Assembly (NCBI GenBank): GCA_963845085.1
Contig: CAWJQI010000005.1
Location: 905,608 to 969,607, forward strand
Origin: Candidatus Fermentibacterota bacterium
GTDB taxonomy: Bacteria > Fermentibacterota > Fermentibacteria > Fermentibacterales > JCC-6
DNA: 64,000 bases
Reading direction: 5' to 3'
In this document: positions 20,825-64,000 of the stretch, piece by piece
Position numbering within the stretch: position 1 is the first letter of the stretch
Layout of the letters: every line of letters begins with the position of its first letter
Position numbers and translations under genes: made by a program
Notes under the pieces: generated by a model
The model's database searches: none
Told to the model about the DNA's origin: nothing
The model's input: only the letters and a program-made list of their open reading frames with translations

Positions 20825-21763
20825 ATGATGCTGATTCTCGCAGTACTGCTTTCAACAACGCTTCCTGACCCATCCACGGCGGATGAGCGGGAGCTTGCAC
20901 CCGTGATCGTTCACGAATGGGGCGTTCTTTCCTGGAGCGGTCCGGACGGATCCTTCTCCGGAGCACCGGGAGCACCGGAAGCACCCGGGACAGTTCCGCA
21001 ACCGGATGAAATGATCCTTCGTGCACCGGTTCTCTACGTTCACGGCCCGGAGTTTACAGGCCGGATCGATGTGCGAACGACCAACGGCGTCCTGACCGCT
21101 CTCTACCCCGAGCCCTCCCTGGTGGACGCTGACAGCGGGTCATGCTCCTGGGATGGCACTTTCGCGTACGAGGCTTTCGAACCATCCGCAAGGGATATGT
21201 CCGCCGCAGTGGAGCGTGGGCTGAGAAGCCCCGATGCCCCGCGCTGGCCCTACCACCTTTGGAGGACGGGGGAAAGCATGACGATAACCACCCCCTGCGC
21301 AACCGAAAGCTTTCTGTACTACGAGACGAGGCCGGAACGGCTTGACTTTCTCCCCCTCATGCCCGGCGCTGATGCAGTGAATGCAGAGTGGGCGGACATT
21401 CCGGCGATCGTTCTGAAAAGGACGGATGACGGTTTCGTCTACTCGGAATGCAATCTCGGTCTGCTCTTCGAGGGTGGCGACCTATCCTTCAGCAGCCTTC
21501 AGCCCGACGAGATCCACGACATTCTGAGGGAGTGGTCGAGGAACATCATCGACATCGAGGAGGTCGACGCCCTCTGGAACACCTGGTCGGACTGGATCTG
21601 CCTTGACCATGCTGATACGGGGGCATACGCCGGGGGACTGGTGCTTTACCTCGTACCTGACGAGCTGCTGGACAAGCTCAGCACCATCGAGGTCTTCCGT
21701 TCCGGCCCGCTGTCCTATCCGTTCCGTGTACACAGGTACATTCTCGCCGCAGTCCCGCTCTGA
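20825..21763 (+). CDS. secreted hypothetical protein, paralogue 1 of HEWGV/ALWNTW family
   Basis: AAGGAGG RBS and a hydrophobic leader. Shares ordered motifs HEWGV, APVLYVHG, FLYYE and ALWNTW with the next two ORFs. Confidence 0.7.
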   Translation: MMLILAVLLSTTLPDPSTADERELAPVIVHEWGVLSWSGPDGSFSGAPGAPEAPGTVPQPDEMILRAPVLYVHGPEFTGRIDVRTTNGVLTALYPEPSLVDADSGSCSWDGTFAYEAFEPSARDMSAAVERGLRSPDAPRWPYHLWRTGESMTITTPCATESFLYYETRPERLDFLPLMPGADAVNAEWADIPAIVLKRTDDGFVYSECNLGLLFEGGDLSFSSLQPDEIHDILREWSRNIIDIEEVDALWNTWSDWICLDHADTGAYAGGLVLYLVPDELLDKLSTIEVFRSGPLSYPFRVHRYILAAVPL

Positions 21764-21775
21764 AAGAGGTTTGAA

Positions 21776-22678
21776 ATGTTTCCACTGCTTCTTCCGTTTC
21801 TTGCGGATACCGTTGTGGCACCCATGGACAACACAACCCTTCTCAGGATCCACGAATGGGGGGTTGTCACCTTTACATCGGTCGGCAGCGAGGTGACCGG
21901 CGTGCCGGGTGACACCTACGGGTACGATCCATTCGGCATGGTGTGCGTCGACGCGCCGGTTGTCTGGTTCCACGGCTCTCCCTTCACAGGCACGTTCACC
22001 GCGACTGCCGGGATGGGCTTCATTTCGACGGCTTACCCGACCCCCTCCGTGCAACTCGAGGGAGATGCGCCTCCTGCCGTATCATGGCATATCGATGGCA
22101 GGCTTCCGGAACCGTACGATGAAGCCCCTGTCCCCTCGGTCCCCGAGGGTACGCCGTTCCAGTGGGCGATGGACTTCTGGCGCGACGTGCCCTGCCACGA
22201 TCTCTACGATGCCGACGGAAACTATCTGGACAGGTTCCTCTACTACGAAACCGCCATTCCCGACGGAATCCACACCAGGATGAACACCGTGGTGGAGGAC
22301 GGCAGGCAGCTCGCAGGGTACTTCTCGCCCGAAGGTCTTCTGATAGCGACGGGCGACGAACCGAGAATATTGCAGCACAACATAATACCTCTTCCGGTCC
22401 TCAGCGATGCCATAAGGCCGCCCCTTGAACGAGACGAAATTCTCGAGAAGATTTGCGACTGGGCGGGAGGCAACCTGAAATCCCAGGAAATCGCCGCCCT
22501 GTGGAACACCTGGGAGCCTTTCTTCAGTGAAAGACCAGCCGGTGAACTTTGGCTGCTCTTCCCTCTGCCGCCGGCCACAGTCGAGGGCATCAGCACGTTA
22601 AGCCTCGCTGTCGAGCAGCCGCTTGACCTCCGTGTTGAATACCACAGGCTATTCCTCGGACTTGTGAGGGTGGAATGA
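21776..22678 (+). CDS. secreted hypothetical protein, paralogue 2 of HEWGV/ALWNTW family
   Basis: Motifs HEWGV, APVVWFHG, FLYYET and ALWNTW. AAAGAGG RBS. Confidence 0.7.
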   Translation: MFPLLLPFLADTVVAPMDNTTLLRIHEWGVVTFTSVGSEVTGVPGDTYGYDPFGMVCVDAPVVWFHGSPFTGTFTATAGMGFISTAYPTPSVQLEGDAPPAVSWHIDGRLPEPYDEAPVPSVPEGTPFQWAMDFWRDVPCHDLYDADGNYLDRFLYYETAIPDGIHTRMNTVVEDGRQLAGYFSPEGLLIATGDEPRILQHNIIPLPVLSDAIRPPLERDEILEKICDWAGGNLKSQEIAALWNTWEPFFSERPAGELWLLFPLPPATVEGISTLSLAVEQPLDLRVEYHRLFLGLVRVE

Positions 22679-23511
22679 TCGTTCCCGCCGTAATCCTGAT
22701 GGCGGGGCTCTCCGTTCACGAATGGGGGGTGGTACTCGTTTCCGAGGGGCAGACCGGATTTGTGTCGGCGCCGGAGGCGGGCATCACCCGCGTCTTCGAT
22801 GTAAAGGCGCCCGTGCTGTACTTTCATGGCGATCCCTGCACGGTGAACGTTCGGGTGACGGTTCCCTCGGGGCTTGTGACACTGGCGCTTCCAGAGCCGG
22901 CTTCCGGGGGAGTGGGATCCGATTCGGTGCATTGGGCGAACCTGTCACTCGTGGATACGGTGGAACGAAATCCATGGCCGGGGATCACCTCATGGGAGTG
23001 GGGTGAAACCTGGTCCGATGTCCAGGCGCTTTCCATCAGAAGGAGCCCCTTCGTAGACAGGTACCTGTTCTACGAATGCTCACTGGTCGGGCCGGGGTTT
23101 CTCCCCTATTTCGTGGATGGGAACAGCCCCGCCGTCGGAAGCGGGTTCGGTGATTTGCCGTGCATCCTTCTGCGCGGAGGAACTGAAGACGCCGAATTCG
23201 CAGAAATGAGCCTCCGGAACCTTGCCGAAGGTGCACCCCCATCGTGGGAGCCTGTAGTAACGGCTTCGCAGGTCAGGATCATTGTCGAATCCTGGGCTGC
23301 GGGTGTTCTCGAGCCTGATGAGTTCAATGCACTCTGGAACACATGGGAAACCACTTTCCTTTTTGGAACAGGCTCTTGCGTACATGTGCTGTACAGCATT
23401 CCCGAAAGCGTCATGAGCGGGGTCGCCCCGATCGAAATCACTTGCGACGACGGGCAGACGGCTGAAGTGAAGAGGTTTCATCTGGCGTTCGTCCCCGCAG
23501 GGAATCCATAG
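22675..23511 (+). CDS. secreted/anchored hypothetical protein, paralogue 3 of HEWGV/ALWNTW family
   Basis: ATGA overlap with paralogue 2. Motifs HEWGV, APVLYFHG, YLFYEC and ALWNTW. Confidence 0.7.
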   Translation: MIVPAVILMAGLSVHEWGVVLVSEGQTGFVSAPEAGITRVFDVKAPVLYFHGDPCTVNVRVTVPSGLVTLALPEPASGGVGSDSVHWANLSLVDTVERNPWPGITSWEWGETWSDVQALSIRRSPFVDRYLFYECSLVGPGFLPYFVDGNSPAVGSGFGDLPCILLRGGTEDAEFAEMSLRNLAEGAPPSWEPVVTASQVRIIVESWAAGVLEPDEFNALWNTWETTFLFGTGSCVHVLYSIPESVMSGVAPIEITCDDGQTAEVKRFHLAFVPAGNP

Positions 23512-25174: not shown

Positions 25175-25217
25175 AGCAGAAAAAGGGGCGGAGGTCTTTC
25201 GGCCTCCGCCCTTCTGC
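25175..25217. terminator. bidirectional hairpin terminator between convergent genes
   Basis: GCAGAAaaaGGGGCGGAGG-tctttcgg-CCTCCGCCCTTCTGC. Confidence 0.6.
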
Positions 25218-25232
25218 TAAATCAGGGACAGC

Positions 25233-25958
25233 CTAGAAAGAAGCCTTGATCTCGCCCCAGGTGCTGCGGGTGAGGGAGGTGCCATCCCACATGAACTCAA
25301 GGATGTTCTCCCAGATGGCTACACCCTGGGTTGCATAGGCCGGTGTGAAACCGCTGATAACGCTCTTGCCGTCAACAGCAACGCAGATACCGGCCTGTCC
25401 GGCTGTGGGGGATGATGCCCATCCCGTGACCGGAGTGGCGGCGCCGACTGTGAACCTGGCGTTAAGGATGCCAAGGCCGGGGTCACTCCAGGACCAGTCC
25501 GAGATGCCGGCGCAAATGGGATGAGTGGGGATCCATGCGTAATGGTTGATAACCGGAGCGCCAAAGGTGGTAACAGCGGTTACGCCCATGCTGTTGGCAA
25601 GGGCCATCTGGCCGGACGTTCCGTTCAGCCACTCCCATGTCGAAACGTAGAGACGGCCGCCACCCGTGTAGTAGCTGGAGATGCCTGCCCAGTTGAGCCC
25701 GTCGGAGTCGGCGTACCAGGACTCGATAACGATGATGTCCCAGGAACCGGTTGTGAGCGCATCGTTGAACTGGGTGTACATACCCCCGGGCTGACCGCTT
25801 GCGGGGTACACGTTGCACGAAGGCCAAAGGTTGTCACAGGCCTCGAGAACGGCATCACCGTAACCGCCCGAATAGTCGTAATAAACCAGGATGTTGGTCG
25901 GGTCCTGCGCGATGAGGAGCGCAGATGCGACAAGAATAATGCATGCGAACATTCTCAT
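25233..25958 (-). CDS. secreted hypothetical protein ending in ...LTRSTWGEIKASF
   Basis: ATG with an AGGAGGG RBS and signal peptide MRMFACIILVASALLIAQD. The C-terminal tag is shared with 59498..60325. Confidence 0.7.
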   Translation of the reverse strand: MRMFACIILVASALLIAQDPTNILVYYDYSGGYGDAVLEACDNLWPSCNVYPASGQPGGMYTQFNDALTTGSWDIIVIESWYADSDGLNWAGISSYYTGGGRLYVSTWEWLNGTSGQMALANSMGVTAVTTFGAPVINHYAWIPTHPICAGISDWSWSDPGLGILNARFTVGAATPVTGWASSPTAGQAGICVAVDGKSVISGFTPAYATQGVAIWENILEFMWDGTSLTRSTWGEIKASF

Positions 25959-26013
25959 AAAAACCCTCCTGTTCGTTTACTAATCGCTGAAGTTTCAGCG
26001 AAAACATTCACTA

Positions 26014-26043
26014 TTACTAAACCCTTCGAAGGTGTCATGTCAA
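26014..26043 (-). promoter_or_regulatory. candidate promoter (TTGACA-N18-TAGTAA) for 25233..25958
   Basis: On the minus strand, -35 is at 26043-26038 and -10 at 26019-26014. A palindrome CGCTGAAGTTTCAGCG (25985-26000) lies between the -10 and the RBS. Confidence 0.4.
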
Positions 26044-58130: not shown

Positions 58131-59375
58131 TCAGAGCAGCACGACCCGGACCGAGGCGGATGTATCGCCGTTCACGACCCTGAGCATGAATACGCCGGCC
58201 GCCATGCGGACACCATGGCGGTCGGTTCCGTCCCAGAACGCCGCCGATCCGTCCGGGCCGGATGAAGCCGGAACAAGGCTTGTCACCATCCTGCCTGAAA
58301 GATCGTACACCAGAACTGTCGAGCCATCGCCGAACCCCCTGCCGAGCCTGATCGACAGCAGCGAGGAAAAGGGGTTCGGGGACACCGAGATGGATGACCC
58401 GGCCGGATTGCATTCAGGGACGGAGAGGTCAGGCCTGAGCCCCATGCTGTGAAAGGCGCCCCCGGATACCGCTGTAAAACCGCAGTTCGGCTCGGGCACC
58501 TGGCACTGCCCCCAGTTGTCGTAACCCCAGGCGGAAATGGAGCCGCTTTGCCTCAGGCCGAGCGTGTGCTTGCCGCCGGCATCCTGAGCGATGAAGCCGC
58601 TGTTCGGTTCGGGAACCTGGCACTGCCCCCAGTTGTCGTAGCCCCAGGCGACCATCGAAGAATCGGCCCTCAGACCAACGCTGTGCAACCCGCCGCCGGA
58701 CATCGAGATGAAATTCTGGTTCGGCGGAGGCACATGACACTGGCCGTCGCCGTTGTCGCCCCAGCAGACCAGGCTCCCGTCGAGCCGGAGGGCGAGGCTG
58801 TGGAAATTCCCGGCAGCCACCAGCGTAAAACCCTGGTTCGGCTCGGGCACCTCGCACTGCCCATGGCTGTTGGAACCCCAGGCGCAAACCGAGTGGTCGC
58901 TCCTGACGGCAAGGCAGTGACCGCCTCCGGCGGCGATCGCCAAAAAACCGCTGTTCGGCTCGGGTACGTCGCACACTCCTGTGCCGGGGTTTCCCCATAC
59001 CGCGATGCTTCCGTCCTCATGAAGGGCCATGCTGTGAAAGTTGCCCGCGGCTATTGCAACGAATCCCGTGTTCGGGGATGGGACATCGCACTGACCGTAG
59101 CAGTTGTTGCCCCACGCCGTGACGGAACCGTCCTCCCTCAGGGCAAGGTTGTGGAAGCCGCCGGCTGCGATCGCCGCAATGCCGCTGTTCGGTTCGGGGA
59201 TGTTGCACTGGCCGTACCGGTTGTTCCCCCAGGCCACGATGGAACCTGATGCATAGGCGTTCGTTGACGCTGCGAGGCACAGAAGGATGATTGCAGCTGA
59301 AGAAGATCCGCGACCGGTCCACAACACTGCGGTCACCTCCCATCGGAGCGAATAACCGGTGTTAGTGTACAACAT
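58131..59375 (-). CDS. seven-repeat RCC1-like beta-propeller protein with T9SS C-terminal sorting domain
   Basis: Seven ~40-aa repeats of WG.N..GQC.VPEPN.GF.AIAAG..H..AL..DGS. The C-terminal ~80 aa (SPNPFSS...VYDLSGRMV...GVFMLRV...VRVVLL) match the Por_Secre_tail pattern. An alternative GTG start at 59337 (RBS GGAGG) gives a cleaner signal peptide. Confidence 0.85.
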   Translation of the reverse strand: MLYTNTGYSLRWEVTAVLWTGRGSSSAAIILLCLAASTNAYASGSIVAWGNNRYGQCNIPEPNSGIAAIAAGGFHNLALREDGSVTAWGNNCYGQCDVPSPNTGFVAIAAGNFHSMALHEDGSIAVWGNPGTGVCDVPEPNSGFLAIAAGGGHCLAVRSDHSVCAWGSNSHGQCEVPEPNQGFTLVAAGNFHSLALRLDGSLVCWGDNGDGQCHVPPPNQNFISMSGGGLHSVGLRADSSMVAWGYDNWGQCQVPEPNSGFIAQDAGGKHTLGLRQSGSISAWGYDNWGQCQVPEPNCGFTAVSGGAFHSMGLRPDLSVPECNPAGSSISVSPNPFSSLLSIRLGRGFGDGSTVLVYDLSGRMVTSLVPASSGPDGSAAFWDGTDRHGVRMAAGVFMLRVVNGDTSASVRVVLL

Positions 59376-59423
59376 GTCAGGAACAAAGAAAAGGGCTGCC
59401 CCCCTTGCCGATGGGTCGGCTTG

Positions 59424-59452
59424 TTGACACCGGCATTGCCCTCTCATATACA
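59424..59452 (+). promoter_or_regulatory. candidate promoter (TTGACA-N17-TATACA) for 59498..60325
   Basis: -35 is at 59424-59429 and -10 at 59447-59452. An AAGGGGG RBS precedes the ATG. Confidence 0.45.
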
Positions 59453-59497
59453 TAACTTTGCCAGTTTGGCGAGGTTTCATTTTGAAGGGGGTGTGGA

Positions 59498-60325
59498 ATG
59501 AAGATTATTGTTACACTTCTGTTGGTGGCGGGTGTTGTTCTGGCCACCACCGACATGGCGCCCACGGTCGGCGTCAGGCCACAGGGCGTTGACACCTGGC
59601 TTGAGCAGATCGGCAGCATCGACGTCGAAGCCGTAGCAGGAAACGCCTACAGCGTGGGTTGCGGTTTTGACGGAACATATCTGTGGGCAACCAACGGCGC
59701 CGGTCAGGCCGGCGGCACAACCGGTGTGTTCATCCTTTTCGAGGAGGACGGCACCTACTTCGCTACCTACAACCAGAACAACGCTCCGGGCTGGGGTCTG
59801 CGTGACCTCACATTCGACGGAACCTACATGTACGGAAGCGTGACCACCGCCATCGACTACTACGATGTCGGCACGCACGCGAAGGTCGGCGCCTTCACAG
59901 GCCCCCAGAACCCCAACAGGGCCCTTGCCTTCGACGGCACCTACTTCTACACCGGCAACTTCGGCACCGAAGTCTACCGCCTCACCTGGAACGGCGTAAG
60001 CGGATCGACCGCCACCAGCACCATCTGGTCCACCGCCGCCACCAGCGTGTACGGCGCCGCCTGGGATGAGCTCAACGACTGCATGTGGGTCACCAGCGCC
60101 GACGCTTCGGGCATAGTCGCCCAGATCGACCCCGCCGGCGCCCTCATTGCGAACCATGTCCTTGTTTCCGGCGGAACTTTTGGCGGTGCCTGCATGGGTT
60201 CCGACTCCCCCGTCAACACACTCTGGATCCTGAACCAGGGCACCCCCGACACACTGCTGGGCTTCGATGTCAACCCCGAAGCGCTCACCAGGGACACCTG
60301 GGGCGCCATCAAGGCTGTGTTCTAA
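59498..60325 (+). CDS. secreted hypothetical protein with four (F/E)DGTY repeats, ending in ...LTRDTWGAIKAVF
   Basis: Signal peptide MKIIVTLLLVAGVVLATT. Repeats are GFDGTYLW, EEDGTYFA, TFDGTYMY and AFDGTYFY. The C-terminal tag is shared with 25233..25958. Confidence 0.7.
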   Translation: MKIIVTLLLVAGVVLATTDMAPTVGVRPQGVDTWLEQIGSIDVEAVAGNAYSVGCGFDGTYLWATNGAGQAGGTTGVFILFEEDGTYFATYNQNNAPGWGLRDLTFDGTYMYGSVTTAIDYYDVGTHAKVGAFTGPQNPNRALAFDGTYFYTGNFGTEVYRLTWNGVSGSTATSTIWSTAATSVYGAAWDELNDCMWVTSADASGIVAQIDPAGALIANHVLVSGGTFGGACMGSDSPVNTLWILNQGTPDTLLGFDVNPEALTRDTWGAIKAVF

Positions 60326-60347: not shown

Positions 60348-60371
60348 GGAAGGCCCCCTCGGGGGCCTTCC
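60348..60371 (+). terminator. hairpin terminator
   Basis: GGAAGGCCCC-ctcg-GGGGCCTTCC followed by TTCAAATT. Confidence 0.55.
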
Positions 60372-60408: not shown

Positions 60409-61974
60409 ATGAACTGGAAGGTTCTCACCCCTGCAATACTGATGGTCTTTCTCTTCGGCTGCGGAGGGACGGATGGTGATGACTGGATAGTAAGGACCAC
60501 CGGCGACACCGTGACCGTTCGTGAAGCCGGTGCACTCTGGACCGGCCTTGAAGCAGAGGAGCGCGACCTGTTCATTGCGGATGAGGAACCGGTTGAATCC
60601 TTCATCCTCGCCCTGGCACGCAGATCCATGATAAACGCGGAACTCGAGGCGTCGGGGCTTCGCCTTTCCGACAAGGTGCTGAGGTATGAGAGTGCATGGA
60701 CACGTTCAGCCCTTTTCATAGCCCTTGCCGATTCCCTGCCCGCCATTCTGATGCGCGGCTACGACGAGACCGACATCGAATTCTTCCGCAGCCATATGGG
60801 AAGCACGGTCTGGTTCACCGACCTCTCCACCGGAGTTCAGCAGGGGCCGCAACACCTCCCCGAGCTTCCTCCGGAGCTTGTCATTGCGTTGTCGACAGCC
60901 GAGCCCGGCGGATCAGTCCAGCATGAGGGCAGGTCGTTCCGGCTTGACTCGATTGCGGGTACCGACAGCATTCTCCTTGCGGAAACCCTGGCTGACACGG
61001 TTCACGTCAGACGGCTGGCCATGTCGAGAATGGCTTCCGCGGAAGCCCAGAGAATAATCATCGAAGCCGAGGCGCGGGCTCTCTCCGAAACCTTCATCGA
61101 CACTGCTCTGGTTGCGGCCTACGCGCAGGTTTCGGGCAACCTCGACTCGGGCTCGCTGGATGCCGATGCCGTGATCCTCGACGGCCCGACACTGTCACTC
61201 ACGGTGGGCGACCTCTACTGGGAGATCGCATTCACAGCGCAAAGCATTCCGGTCTCCCCGGCTTCCCCGGAATGGCTGCTCTACTACCTCGGCAACCAGG
61301 TGAGGCTCTCGGCCGGCGCCTCGATGTTTGGTGAACGGTGGCCCGATGAGGCTGCACGCATTCGGGAGGAAGGGAGCCGTTTCGGCGGGGAAACCGCCCT
61401 CGAGGCGCTGTACGAGCAGCAGGTCAGCTCTGTTGTTGCGGTTACCGATTCAATGCTTCACGCCGAATTCGAGTCACTCTCCGAACCCCTGCTCCTTCCG
61501 GAACAGAGGGTTCTCGAGATCGGCCTGGTGCCGGAACAGAACCGTGTCGAACTGCGTACGGCCCTGCAGAACGGCGATGCTGACGCCGTACGGACGCTGC
61601 TTCAGCCTTACTCGAGCTGGGAGGGCTTCGATACCGGTTCGCTTGTCTCCAGTGCCGTGACCGCGAGCATGGTTCCGGAGGCAATGGGATCGATCGTGTT
61701 CTCCGCCGATCCTGCGGATACCACGACCTGGTTCGGTCCGATCGAAACACAGCACGGATCCATGATGGTCTACCGAACGGCTCAGGTGCTGCCGAGGGAG
61801 CAGGCAACCTTCGAGGAAGCTACGGACTGGCTGGAAGCGCGCGTCAGGCAGCAGCTCGAGGAAGCCCGCACGCTGGAATGGATGGCGGAACTGGAGGAAA
61901 GCATGGGGTTGGAGATAAACCGGGCCATTCTGTCAGACCTGCCTGCTGATCCTGCATTGTGGGCGGAGCTTTGA
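60409..61974 (+). CDS. lipoprotein, possibly a SurA/PpiD-like chaperone with a degenerate parvulin-like C-terminal domain
   Basis: Lipobox LFGCGG. The C-terminal WFGPIETQHGSMMVYRTAQV...ATFEEA resembles a PpiC-type fold. The assignment is weak. Confidence 0.6.
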   Translation: MNWKVLTPAILMVFLFGCGGTDGDDWIVRTTGDTVTVREAGALWTGLEAEERDLFIADEEPVESFILALARRSMINAELEASGLRLSDKVLRYESAWTRSALFIALADSLPAILMRGYDETDIEFFRSHMGSTVWFTDLSTGVQQGPQHLPELPPELVIALSTAEPGGSVQHEGRSFRLDSIAGTDSILLAETLADTVHVRRLAMSRMASAEAQRIIIEAEARALSETFIDTALVAAYAQVSGNLDSGSLDADAVILDGPTLSLTVGDLYWEIAFTAQSIPVSPASPEWLLYYLGNQVRLSAGASMFGERWPDEAARIREEGSRFGGETALEALYEQQVSSVVAVTDSMLHAEFESLSEPLLLPEQRVLEIGLVPEQNRVELRTALQNGDADAVRTLLQPYSSWEGFDTGSLVSSAVTASMVPEAMGSIVFSADPADTTTWFGPIETQHGSMMVYRTAQVLPREQATFEEATDWLEARVRQQLEEARTLEWMAELEESMGLEINRAILSDLPADPALWAEL

Positions 61975-63740
61975 GGAAGGCCGGCTTCCTCGCATTCCTG
62001 CTCCCGTTCATTGCGGCATTTCTTTTTGTTGCACCGGGTGTCTACGACACCACGATGATGTCCAGACTTGCATTGTATCCCCTGCTGGGAGCTTTTGTTT
62101 TTCTCTGCGGCAGGGATGAGATCGGCCTATGGCATCTGATCGCCGGTGCGACACTGATCGTGATCCCCTCCGCAGCGCTCCTGCTGGCGCCGCATCCGCT
62201 GTCGGGCGTGCCATACGCCGTGCGCTTCCTTTCCTTCGGGCTCATGATCGCCGGATTCAGCGGGACCGTTGCGAAGTGGGGCGTGAAGCCCCACCTTGAA
62301 GGGCTGGCTGCTGCGGCTGCCCTTGTGTCGATCCTGATGGTCGTGTTCGGAGCCGATTCATTGACAGGCAACCCGAACCGCGCCGGAATGCTTCTGCCAT
62401 TGGGGCTCGTGTCCGCCCTCTCAGCCGGCAGCCGCCGGAAGGCGGTCGTTCTGTCCGCTCTCATCATTCCCGGGCTTGTCGTTTCGGAGTTCTATATCTC
62501 CTGGGCGGCGGCGCTTCTCGGAGCGGTCATCCTGCTCCTTCACAGGCGCTTTACCGTAAACCCGGCCCTGATCCCGGCAGCGATCATCCTGGCGCAGTCG
62601 GCATTCACCATGATGCCATCCTCGGCTGGAAGGATCGGTCCGACCCTCGAGCTCAGGACCCTGATCTGGCGGACTTCAGCGGAACTCTGCCGTTCATCCC
62701 TCCCGCTCGGGATGGGAACGGGGCAGGCCAGGCTGCAGGTGTATGCGGCCGGCGGAAGTGACCTGCAGGCGCTCGCCGGGGCTGACAGCCGTGTTGACTT
62801 CCTTCATTCCGAGCCGCTTACCCTTCTGACGGAGTTCGGCGTGACAGGCTTCGCAATGCTCGCCGCGTTTCTTCTGTGGCTTTTGAAGAGCAGGGAAGAA
62901 GGGTCGGCTGCAGCCCTTCTGGCGGCCTTCTGGCTCGTCTTCACCACCGATCTGCCCCTTGCAACCCCGCTTGGCGCGCTGCCGGCCGCCCTTGTGATCG
63001 GGGCATGCCTGACACCCGGCCGAAGGACCAGGGTTCCGATCGCGATCCCGCTGGTCTTCATCGCCGCCTCGATACCATGGGCGTACACGGTCCTCAGGGG
63101 GTACCATGCGCTGAACCGCCCCGATGACCCCCGAAGCGCATCGGAGGCCTGCCGGTACATCCCGTTCGAGGAAAGGGCTTTCCTTCAGGCCGGATGGGTG
63201 TGGCTTCGCGCAGGGTCGCCCCTCGAGGCCGAGGGTTTCTCGGAAAGGGCCGTTTCAGTCTATCCCCTCTACCATGGGGGATGGGAGCTTCGCGCGAGCG
63301 TTCTGGGTTCGCTCGGAAGGCCCGGGGAATCAGCTTCAGCATGGAGAAGGGCCTTCATGCTCGCCCCCGGGAACCACGGTGACAGGATGCTGTTCGCCCT
63401 TAACGGCATCCCGCTGTCGGAGAACTCCCGCGACACTCTGCTCGCCATGGGAAACGCCCTGTCGGAAGCCGTCATGTGGCGCGAGCTATACCCGTGGATC
63501 CGCAACGACAGCTACAGAGAGATAGCGCACAGGTGCCTCGTCCTTGCGCAGAACCTTCTTCCCGAAAACCCCGCGCTTTCAGGAGCTGTCTTTGCAGCGG
63601 CCGTCATCACCGGCGAGAACTGCCCGGAACCTGACAGAGCCGAGTTCCTGCTCGAGGCGTACCTCGTCTACGAGCGGTTTCGGGAGTTGGTCCCTTCAGA
63701 GCGGCGGAACAAGGTGGAAGCACTCATCGAACAACGGTGA
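61959..63740 (+). CDS. O-antigen ligase (Wzy_C)-like polytopic membrane protein with C-terminal TPR-like domain
   Basis: About 10-12 TM helices, the motif VDFLHSEPLTLLTEFGVTGF and a C-terminal helical repeat region. The start is either GTG 61959 or TTG 61971, which overlaps the upstream stop. Confidence 0.7.
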   Translation: MGGALRKAGFLAFLLPFIAAFLFVAPGVYDTTMMSRLALYPLLGAFVFLCGRDEIGLWHLIAGATLIVIPSAALLLAPHPLSGVPYAVRFLSFGLMIAGFSGTVAKWGVKPHLEGLAAAAALVSILMVVFGADSLTGNPNRAGMLLPLGLVSALSAGSRRKAVVLSALIIPGLVVSEFYISWAAALLGAVILLLHRRFTVNPALIPAAIILAQSAFTMMPSSAGRIGPTLELRTLIWRTSAELCRSSLPLGMGTGQARLQVYAAGGSDLQALAGADSRVDFLHSEPLTLLTEFGVTGFAMLAAFLLWLLKSREEGSAAALLAAFWLVFTTDLPLATPLGALPAALVIGACLTPGRRTRVPIAIPLVFIAASIPWAYTVLRGYHALNRPDDPRSASEACRYIPFEERAFLQAGWVWLRAGSPLEAEGFSERAVSVYPLYHGGWELRASVLGSLGRPGESASAWRRAFMLAPGNHGDRMLFALNGIPLSENSRDTLLAMGNALSEAVMWRELYPWIRNDSYREIAHRCLVLAQNLLPENPALSGAVFAAAVITGENCPEPDRAEFLLEAYLVYERFRELVPSERRNKVEALIEQR

Positions 63741-64000
63741 ACCTGCCGGTCGTTGAGGAACCTTCGTTTTCCGCCCTTACCAGGTACATCCCCGGTGCAA
63801 GACCCTGAAGGAGCAGGCTGTCTGTTCCCTGCGCGACGGTTCTTCCCGTGATGTCGAACACCGAGATCCTGCCACCGCCGGTTATCACGACACTGCCGCG
63901 GCTGGGGTTCGGCCCGACGGAAAGGGCCGGCGCGGGGGACACCCCGCCCTCGACACCAAGGAAGTGCATCGCGGGAACGATGGTCGGATCGCCGAGGATT
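63724..64000 (-). CDS. 3' end of a gene encoding a T9SS C-terminal sorting domain protein (truncated by the window edge)
   Basis: GPNPSRGSVVI...ISVFDITGRTVA...PGMYLVRAE...GRFTVVR matches the Por_Secre_tail pattern. The frame stays open upstream to nt 64000. Confidence 0.75.
   Translation of the reverse strand, partial: ILGDPTIVPAMHFLGVEGGVSPAPALSVGPNPSRGSVVITGGGRISVFDITGRTVAQGTDSLLLQGLAPGMYLVRAENEGSSTTGRFTVVR

Follow-up and report, generated by a model that had tools for sequence, protein, structure and literature searches.

A short C-terminal tail on unrelated exported proteins of Fermentibacterota and other mostly uncultured phyla: a candidate envelope-sorting tag

A 64,000-nucleotide stretch of a Candidatus Fermentibacterota bacterium genome (GenBank assembly GCA_963845085.1, contig CAWJQI010000005.1, positions 905,608 to 969,607 of the forward strand; hereafter the window) encodes two predicted secreted proteins, A and B, that end in the same short tail. 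Gene A (25233..25958, reverse strand) codes for 241 amino acids, comprising a signal peptide, a glutamine-amidotransferase-like alpha/beta domain, a linker and the tail, and gene B (59498..60325, forward strand) codes for 275 amino acids, comprising a signal peptide, a beta-propeller, a linker and the tail. With moderate confidence we interpret the last ~14 residues of A and B as a modular, protein-level tag for envelope sorting or anchoring. Such a candidate sorting or anchoring signal had been proposed in an original prediction made from the letters of the window, and the C-terminal position of the tail, the signal peptides of its carriers and its swaps with known anchors all point, indirectly, the same way. 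The tail is modular, restricted to C-termini, selected at the protein level, associated with signal peptides, interchangeable with known anchors and taxonomically widespread: it is found on hundreds of exported proteins that are unrelated to one another, from about ten phyla that are for the most part uncultured.

The tail shared by A and B is confirmed as real and beyond chance. In A it reads SLTRSTWGEIKASF and is encoded by the last 14 codons (25236..25277, reverse strand; stop codon 25233-25235), and in B it reads ALTRDTWGAIKAVF, again from the last 14 codons (60281..60322, forward strand; stop codon 60323-60325). As the original prediction had stated, 10 of the 14 terminal residues are identical and the upstream parts do not align: BLASTP between A and B gives an alignment confined to the last 25 residues (12/25 identical, pairwise E 3e-4) and no further significant similarity between the bodies. 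Across the six reading frames of the window, [ST]WGx[IVL]K appears nowhere but in the tails of A and B, each time exactly 3 residues before the stop; 2 of the ~55 genes in the window bear the tag. A degenerate DNA pattern for T-W-G-x-I-K-x-x-F-stop matches the window twice, compared with 0.00 matches expected from 100 dinucleotide-preserving shuffles.

We then scanned one genome per GTDB species with degenerate DNA versions of three tail patterns. The pattern T-W-G-x-I-K-x-x-F-stop (F-type) gave at least 125 matches at 119 or more loci, and at least 108 of the matches end open reading frames (ORFs) of 100 aa or longer, with a median length of ~250 aa among the matches listed. The carriers are metagenome-assembled genomes (MAGs), with at least ~40 loci in Fermentibacteria and at least 22 in Poribacteria, besides Latescibacterota, Gemmatimonadota, Coatesbacteria, Eisenbacteria, Krumholzibacteriia and UBP1; about a dozen chance loci among the matches listed (in Halomonas, Chryseobacterium and others) are recognisable by TGG at the stop position or by ORFs of 9-34 aa. 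Because some relatives of A and B end in W-G-x-I-K-x-L-Y-R, this ending followed by a stop was taken as the second pattern (YR-type), which gave at least 120 loci and at least 118 real ORFs in Eisenbacteria, Krumholzibacteriota, Latescibacterota, Gemmatimonadota, Zixibacteria, uncultured Fibrobacteraceae, UBP1 and many other MAGs. A variant of Coatesbacteria with Leu for Trp (S-L-G-E-I-K) was first seen among the relatives of A. The corresponding third scan, S-L-G-E-I-K-A-x-Y-x-stop, ran to completion and found 10 loci across the whole genome collection, 3 of them by chance; 7 or more tagged genes lie on the 2.6-Mb Coatesbacteria chromosome CP070755.1. Among the matches listed, a single MAG carries up to 5 tags, and those in Bacteroidota are limited to chance matches and one MAG whose placement is uncertain. 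Tagged paralogues often stand in tandem, for example four in locus L138 and three in L184. A protein search with a 40-aa alignment of the tail gave 13 candidates and 1 match. Far from being absent from all other proteins, an outcome by which the original prediction would have failed, the tail ends at least 226 real, long ORFs in the first two scans, and the bodies of the F-type ORFs (at least 108, compared after removal of the last 20 residues) fall into at least 48 families without detectable mutual similarity.

The consensus of the tail can be written as hydrophobic-[EQD]-x-x-[ST]-[W, rarely L/F]-G-x-[IV]-K-small-x-[FY]-(0-5 more residues)-COOH. F-type tails have Ala, Ser or Thr at position -3, Gly at -7 and Thr at -9. 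The terminal Phe, which had been taken for a hallmark, does not hold as one, since relatives end not only in F but also in LYR, FGR, FDE, AY, AR or GYH, with 1-8 residues past the invariant Lys. The invariant Thr, Gly, Ile, Lys, Phe, Tyr and Arg residues are encoded by every one of their synonymous codons, and each of the three stop codons is found; the conservation therefore lies on the protein and not on DNA or RNA. It is also evident that the YR-type proteins (L120-L239, Eisenbacteria-type) are richer in Cys just before the tail, with 1.4 Cys on average in the preceding 30 residues versus 0.3 in the F-type. These Cys often stand in the arrangement C-x(n)-C-x-x-P-V-E, which may form a disulfide-stapled stalk.

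Most tagged proteins look exported. An N-terminal hydrophobic, signal-peptide-like segment is found in 87-90% of the tagged ORFs versus 30-39% of their neighbours, and among 201 tagged proteins 172 have signals like those of signal peptidase I (SPase I) substrates and 8 bear a lipobox. Some two-thirds lack any Pfam domain, and the remainder carry typical extracytoplasmic modules (Laminin_G_3, DUF1080, Big_5, alginate lyase, CBM9, CBM20, CBM96, lamin-tail LTD, beta-helix, NHL and SBBP propellers, CHRD and plastocyanin-like domains), including the enzymes M36 protease and ExeM/NucH nuclease. Across A, B and 226 further tagged proteins (228 in all), no model of Pfam-A (2025) or NCBIfam (release 20) covers the tail, and literature searches on motif strings and topics found no published description of it. 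Five tagged proteins (within L001-L119) match NCBIfam NF052521, the TafC family fimbrial protein (best E 4e-17); TafC is a subunit of haloarchaeal Tat-dependent fimbriae (PMC11821415).

A has 72 orthologues of ~240 aa in Fermentibacteria (Ca. Sabulitectum and Ca. Aegiribacteria) and B has 104 homologues; all named homologues, from Candidatus Sabulitectum, Aegiribacteria and Fermentibacteria, are labelled hypothetical protein, which places the window in the Fermentibacteria (Hyd24-12). Neither A nor B has a match in Pfam or NCBIfam, even at E up to 1, and neither family profile finds anything significant by sequence in the PDB. The AlphaFold2 model of A, built with the family alignment, has a mean predicted local distance difference test (pLDDT) score of 91 and shows a three-layer alpha/beta domain at residues 21-225 that resembles class-I glutamine amidotransferase-like domains (Foldseek, E 1e-5, TM score ~0.5). 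That of B, built likewise (pLDDT 88), shows a beta-propeller at residues 36-257, for which Foldseek returns other beta-propellers, the top TM scores (0.6-0.7) being to the glutaminyl cyclases 2faw and 3nok at 12% identity. The propeller of B is thus nearest in fold to plant- and bacterial-type glutaminyl cyclases; at the sequence level nothing supports a cyclase, the profile search against the PDB giving E 0.44. Past the end of each fold there are 16-18 residues, of which only ~14 are conserved. In A, residues 226-233 form a coil and 234-240 a short helix (pLDDT ~50-56), and in B, residues 258-264 form a linker and 265-274 a helix (pLDDT ~57-61). The low scores of the tails, which follow low-confidence linkers, suggest that the tail is detached from both folds and probably folds only when bound. 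Within each family the tail is as conserved as core residues: among the 57 aligned members of the A family, W234, I237 and K238 never vary, and L229, T233 and F241 reach a conservation of 90% or more; the B family has an invariant K272, with W268 and I271 likewise conserved to 90% or more.

The strongest argument for a function of the tail is that it stands where known sorting signals stand. In the homologues furthest from B (P0171-P0173, ~400 aa) there are domains of the type IX secretion system (T9SS), PF18962 and PF13860, at the place of the tag. In a profile search with the A family against 1.84 billion representative sequences, the same domain was found with T9SS C-terminal domains (CTDs), with PEP-CTERM, PGF-CTERM-like or other ends made of a transmembrane segment plus basic residues, with variants of the tail and with Cys-rich ends; the true PEP-CTERM and PGF-like tails among them show the pattern of transmembrane segment plus basic residues. 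Paralogues with the same body bear either a CTD or the tag (within L226; in L182 versus L190; in L202 versus L168), and none of 80 CTD proteins contains the motif. Moreover, the tagged bodies match NCBIfam models of families that are characterised by variable anchors, namely choice_anch_R, choice_anch_J, choice_anch_W, DNRLRE, the PEP-CTERM protein ScyF (9e-58), rhombosortase- and myxosortase-dependent M36 peptidases, and ExeM/NucH and T9SS-dependent nucleases (DNase).

Two other endings were seen among the relatives of the A domain. Many of them (P0203, P0206, P0209, P0213, P0215, P0242, P0259, P0264, P0284 and P0308) have the Cys-rich end ...CG[VI]DPTADGLGC...CP, which we presume to be dockerin-like or of a Planctomycete type. 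Large multidomain relatives (P0207, P0211, P0222, P0270 and P0299) end in ...YLPLVVRNH, ...FYLPLIMRNTF, ...FLPLIFKP or ...IYLPVILR, which may be a second, so far undescribed C-terminal tail of a different lineage.

As an envelope tag the tail could work as follows. A tagged protein would be exported by Sec with an SPase-I-type signal peptide, and its compact body would fold in the periplasm, leaving the tail exposed at the end of a short, flexible linker. An envelope component conserved in these phyla would then recognise the tail as a linear peptide. On binding, the tail might fold into a two-turn amphipathic helix, in which W, I and F/Y take positions i, i+3 and i+7, or else join as an extra beta-strand that turns T, G, I, the small residue and the aromatic residue to one side and W and K to the opposite side. 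This binding would set the destination, which may be handover across the outer membrane, retention at the surface, or both. We favour non-covalent docking to a dedicated receptor over a receptor in the T9SS; the tag would thereby do the job that T9SS CTDs, PEP-CTERM, PGF-CTERM and dockerin-like ends do on homologous proteins elsewhere. Receptor binding and the final location of the tagged proteins are what we infer. More tentatively still, and with something less than even confidence, the tail may be the address label of a previously unrecognised sorting system of FCB-group (Fibrobacterota, Chlorobiota and Bacteroidota) phyla other than Bacteroidota. Such a system might span Fermentibacteria, Eisenbacteria, Krumholzibacteriota, Latescibacterota, Gemmatimonadota, Zixibacteria, Coatesbacteria, Poribacteria and others, and might have its own receptor or processing enzyme and many substrates per genome, its signal being neither a folded domain nor a tripartite motif anchored by a transmembrane segment.

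Several observations weigh against an envelope-sorting tag. The helix that AlphaFold gives to the tail has low confidence (pLDDT 50-60), and all the tag carriers found are MAGs, none of them cultured. Some bodies are typically periplasmic (plastocyanin-like, NosD-like and DUF1080), and a periplasmic role is therefore conceivable. Although the core motif lies at most 8 residues from the C-terminus in 272 of its 282 occurrences in the fetched sequences, this bias is partly built in, the loci having been chosen by pattern; the C-terminal position is also seen in the homologue sets picked by body similarity and in the window, and these, not being selected by pattern, lend it unbiased support. Finally, clustering of 1,473 ORFs from 239 loci (8-kb neighbourhoods) revealed no recurrent partner gene beside the tagged genes. 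The co-occurring processing or sorting gene that the original prediction had suggested looking for has thus found no candidate in these neighbourhoods, where no sortase, exosortase or rhombosortase gene was seen either. The recurrent untagged neighbours are generic: T9SS-CTD proteins, ABC ATPases and permeases, TPR-HD proteins, histidine kinases, extracytoplasmic function (ECF) sigma factors, radical SAM and UvrD proteins.

Alternative explanations of the shared end differ greatly in probability. That it reflects ordinary paralogy of A and B, or an integral structural element of the two proteins, is very unlikely: what they share amounts to 14 residues, their bodies show no similarity and have different predicted folds, the tail stands outside the confident fold behind a linker of low pLDDT, and it recurs on the 48 or more unrelated body families. 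Full-length homology of A and B, which the original prediction had named as the finding that would undo it, is likewise contradicted by the dissimilar bodies and folds, and paralogy was rejected on these grounds. Even smaller, close to negligible, is the probability that a nucleic-acid element at the 3' end of the genes, such as a terminator, regulatory site or repeat, is incidentally translated. The motif does adjoin stop codons, and a terminator follows A; however, the motif invariably forms the in-frame end of a long ORF, its x positions vary freely, and the use of all synonymous codons at the invariant positions and of all three stops refutes a DNA or RNA element. More deserving of attention, yet still improbable, is a periplasmic C-terminal ligand of a PDZ protease or chaperone (Prc/CtpA/DegS-like) that serves turnover, maturation or stress signalling. 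The strictly C-terminal motif would fit, as would the F-type ending, in which Phe last and Ala, Ser or Thr at -3 resemble class-I PDZ ligands; several bodies of periplasmic type (plastocyanin, NosD, DUF1080) and the PpiC-type peptidyl-prolyl isomerase (PPIase) lipoprotein gene that follows B in conserved synteny also speak for it. PDZ binding, however, needs a fixed register between motif and free carboxylate, and the 1-8 residues past the invariant Lys have varied endings, the YR-type and longer ones shifting the register by 1-5 residues relative to the F-type. Many bodies, moreover, are typical extracellular enzymes or carbohydrate-binding modules and have homologues with surface anchors, and a degradation tag on ~2 of the ~55 window genes, kept across about ten phyla, is hard to rationalise.

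The most substantial alternative, although we still regard it as unlikely, is that the tail is a minimal, domain-less T9SS signal that replaces the last strand of the CTD ('motif C-t', with the conserved Lys) and forms a third class. This overlaps with the envelope-sorting tag itself, the receptor then being the T9SS, and would mean that the folded CTD is no longer indispensable. Every sampled tag-bearing phylum also encodes T9SS-type CTD proteins (for example Poribacteria L018, Coatesbacteria L248 and the window), which occur in 67 of the fetched sources (249 loci and the window), and tag and CTD are mutually exclusive and swapped between paralogues with the same body. In Porphyromonas gingivalis, a C-terminal CTD strand with a conserved Lys is essential and extra residues at the C-terminus do no harm, and the final 22 residues of HBP35 are reported to carry the targeting signal (PMC11285876); the Lys strand and the tolerated extension parallel the invariant Lys and the 1-8 variable residues of the tag. 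In the YR-type phyla, furthermore, CTDs end in [ST]-R-K-[LM]-V-L-L-[RK] and tags in I-K-[AS]-L-Y-R, both having a basic residue, hydrophobic residues and a terminal basic residue. Such resemblance is missing in Fermentibacteria, where CTDs end in ...VVR and tags in ...ASF, so that the two ends do not co-vary. The swaps are not specific to T9SS either, since relatives of the A domain use PEP-CTERM and PGF-CTERM equally readily, and Bacteroidota, the heartland of T9SS, offer among the matches listed only the chance matches and the one uncertainly placed MAG. The Ig-like 3+4 beta-sandwich of the CTD is reported to be essential (PMC11285876), and a 14-residue tail is unable to form it.

At the sequence level the tail is not a CTD. 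The original prediction had held the two apart, and with good reason: the tail is too short for the Ig-like sandwich, A and B are unmatched by the Por_Secre_tail and FlgD_ig profiles (PF18962, TIGR04183, PF13860) at E up to 1, no recurrent CTD match appears among the 228 tagged proteins scanned, and profile-profile comparison of the tag with a local CTD profile (hhalign) gives a probability of 0.2%, by which a truncated CTD was rejected. The two T9SS CTDs that the original prediction had recognised in the window are borne out by matches to Por_Secre_tail (1.1e-7), TIGR04183 (1.4e-4) and a local CTD hidden Markov model (6e-15 and 5e-8); they lie at the C-terminal end of the protein encoded at 58131-59480 and in the ORF at 63724-63969. 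The former (reverse strand) is an RCC1-repeat protein with a type A CTD; in its longest ORF ~55 residues precede the hydrophobic segment, and the true start is therefore probably further downstream. A weak PEP-CTERM Pfam match in this protein is internal (residues 171-186) and looks spurious. The latter (reverse strand) is an 81-aa ORF with only a T9SS Por_Secre_tail domain (1.1e-7); its relatives in L087 and L117 have 299-425 aa, and the copy in the window is probably mis-started or disrupted near the window end.

The reading of A and B as exported proteins begins at their N-termini, both of which have signal-peptide-like n, h and c regions. In A, the predicted Sec signal peptide covers residues 1-17 (25908..25958, reverse strand) and reads MRMFACIILVASALLIA, with cleavage predicted after LIA and before QDP; orthologues have ...AFA at the same site, again before QDP. 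The mature form of A, like that of most of its orthologues, is thus predicted to begin with Gln (A residues 17/18, window 25905-25910). In B, it covers residues 1-16 (59498..59545, forward strand) and reads MKIIVTLLLVAGVVLA, with cleavage predicted after VLA and before TTD; orthologues have ...AFA before MTD.

The expression signals that had been described for the two genes were largely recovered. Perfect TTGACA -35 boxes are present upstream of both. The promoter-like region of A (26010..26043, reverse strand), identified by consensus matches, has TTGACA at 26043-26038 and a weak -10-like element near 26018-26010, and that of B (59424..59452, forward strand) has TTGACA at 59424-59429, a 17-nt spacer and TATACA. 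The promoter scan did not call the region of B, because its -10 element is without the final T. Strong ribosome-binding sites are also there, AGGAGG for A (25970-25965, reverse strand) and GAAGGGGG with GGGGG for B (59485-59492, forward strand). Of the two hairpin terminators described, that of A stands: the terminator scan called an intrinsic-terminator-like hairpin 22 nt past the stop (25186..25211, reverse strand), with 9 pairs, 8 of 9 being G-C, followed by CTTTTTCT. For B, a GC-rich hairpin is visible after the gene (60348..60371, forward strand; GGAAGGCCCC, a short loop and GGGGCCTTCC), with a weak T tract and no T-run, and the terminator scan did not call it.

Downstream of B lie the gene of the PpiC-type PPIase lipoprotein (60409-61974, forward strand; Rotamase_2, 3.9e-7) and that of a 593-aa polytopic membrane protein (61959-63740, forward strand) with no family match, in which a C-terminal half like tetratricopeptide repeats and an O-antigen-ligase-like loop can be recognised by eye. 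The order of B, the lipoprotein gene and the membrane protein gene is kept beside the B orthologues in L019, L087 and L117. Elsewhere in the window, three tandem paralogous ORFs on the forward strand (20825-21763, 21776-22678 and 22675-23511; 312, 300 and 278 aa) have 25-27% mutual identity, hydrophobic N-termini and a common HEWGV motif near the start; none has a Pfam match, and the first, the only one scanned against NCBIfam, has no match there.

In genomes, whole sets of surface and secreted proteins are recognised by their C-terminal sorting signals, and the discovery of each such signal has led to the machine that does the sorting: sortase, exosortase, rhombosortase, archaeosortase and the T9SS. 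The tail described here marks hundreds of otherwise hypothetical exported proteins, many of them with carbohydrate-binding or degradative modules, in phyla that are known almost solely from metagenomes and come from anaerobic digesters, sponges, soils and sediments. A simple profile of the tail would annotate the tagged set as a probable surface or secreted proteome and would enable a phylogenetic-profiling search for the partner gene. It also raises the concrete question of whether a 14-residue linear peptide can direct a folded protein to or across the Gram-negative outer membrane.

A cargo-loading peptide for encapsulins or microcompartments, which would act on cytoplasmic cargo, was rejected because tagged proteins have signal peptides (87-90% of tagged ORFs, A and B included, with a signal-peptide-like N-terminus). 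A TonB-box-like element or an Lpp-like linkage through a C-terminal Lys was also discarded, since neither the position nor the consensus fits. Dockerin-type docking modules, like the tag, are C-terminal additions by which a variety of enzymes and binding modules are brought to one scaffold; they have Ca-binding repeats, whereas the tag is without such repeats and far shorter, and we know of no cohesin-like partner for it. The outer-membrane protein (OMP) beta-signal, to which the original prediction had likened the tail, is similarly a short C-terminal peptide ending in an aromatic residue, as is the tag of Fermentibacteria and Poribacteria, and it is read by the beta-barrel assembly machinery (BAM) much as the tag could plausibly be read by beta-augmentation. 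The analogy breaks down in that the beta-signal is the last strand of a transmembrane barrel, whereas the tagged bodies are soluble and not barrels (alpha/beta, propeller, lectin, carbohydrate-binding and beta-helix); the beta-signal has hydrophobic residues at -3, -5, -7 and -9, whereas the tag has small residues or Gly at -3 and -7; and the terminal aromatic residue is not conserved across the flavours of the tag. An OMP beta-signal was therefore rejected.

Other close parallels are found among sorting signals. PEP-CTERM/exosortase, GlyGly-CTERM/rhombosortase, MYXO-CTERM, PGF-CTERM/archaeosortase and LPXTG/sortase signals are, like the tag, short C-terminal motifs on many unrelated exported proteins of a genome, and they share with it a restriction to certain lineages and the same choice-of-anchor body families. 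They differ in having a transmembrane helix and a basic cluster after the motif, where the tag has only 1-8 residues and the stop. The original prediction was right to see no likeness to PEP-CTERM, LPXTG or GlyGly-CTERM, and assignment to any of these or to PGF-CTERM was rejected for this reason. The T9SS CTD (type A, TIGR04183/PF18962; FlgD_ig-like of FCB phyla) agrees with the tag in its C-terminal position on unrelated Sec-exported proteins, in its occurrence in the same phyla and often at the same loci, in being interchangeable with it on homologous bodies, and in a conserved Lys near the end with a few extra C-terminal residues tolerated; the two differ in length, the tag having 14 residues and the CTD 70-100. 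Type A CTDs are further marked by secretion through the T9SS and removal by PorU; what links the tag to that system is co-occurrence with CTD-bearing genes at phylum level, alongside the swaps and the Lys.

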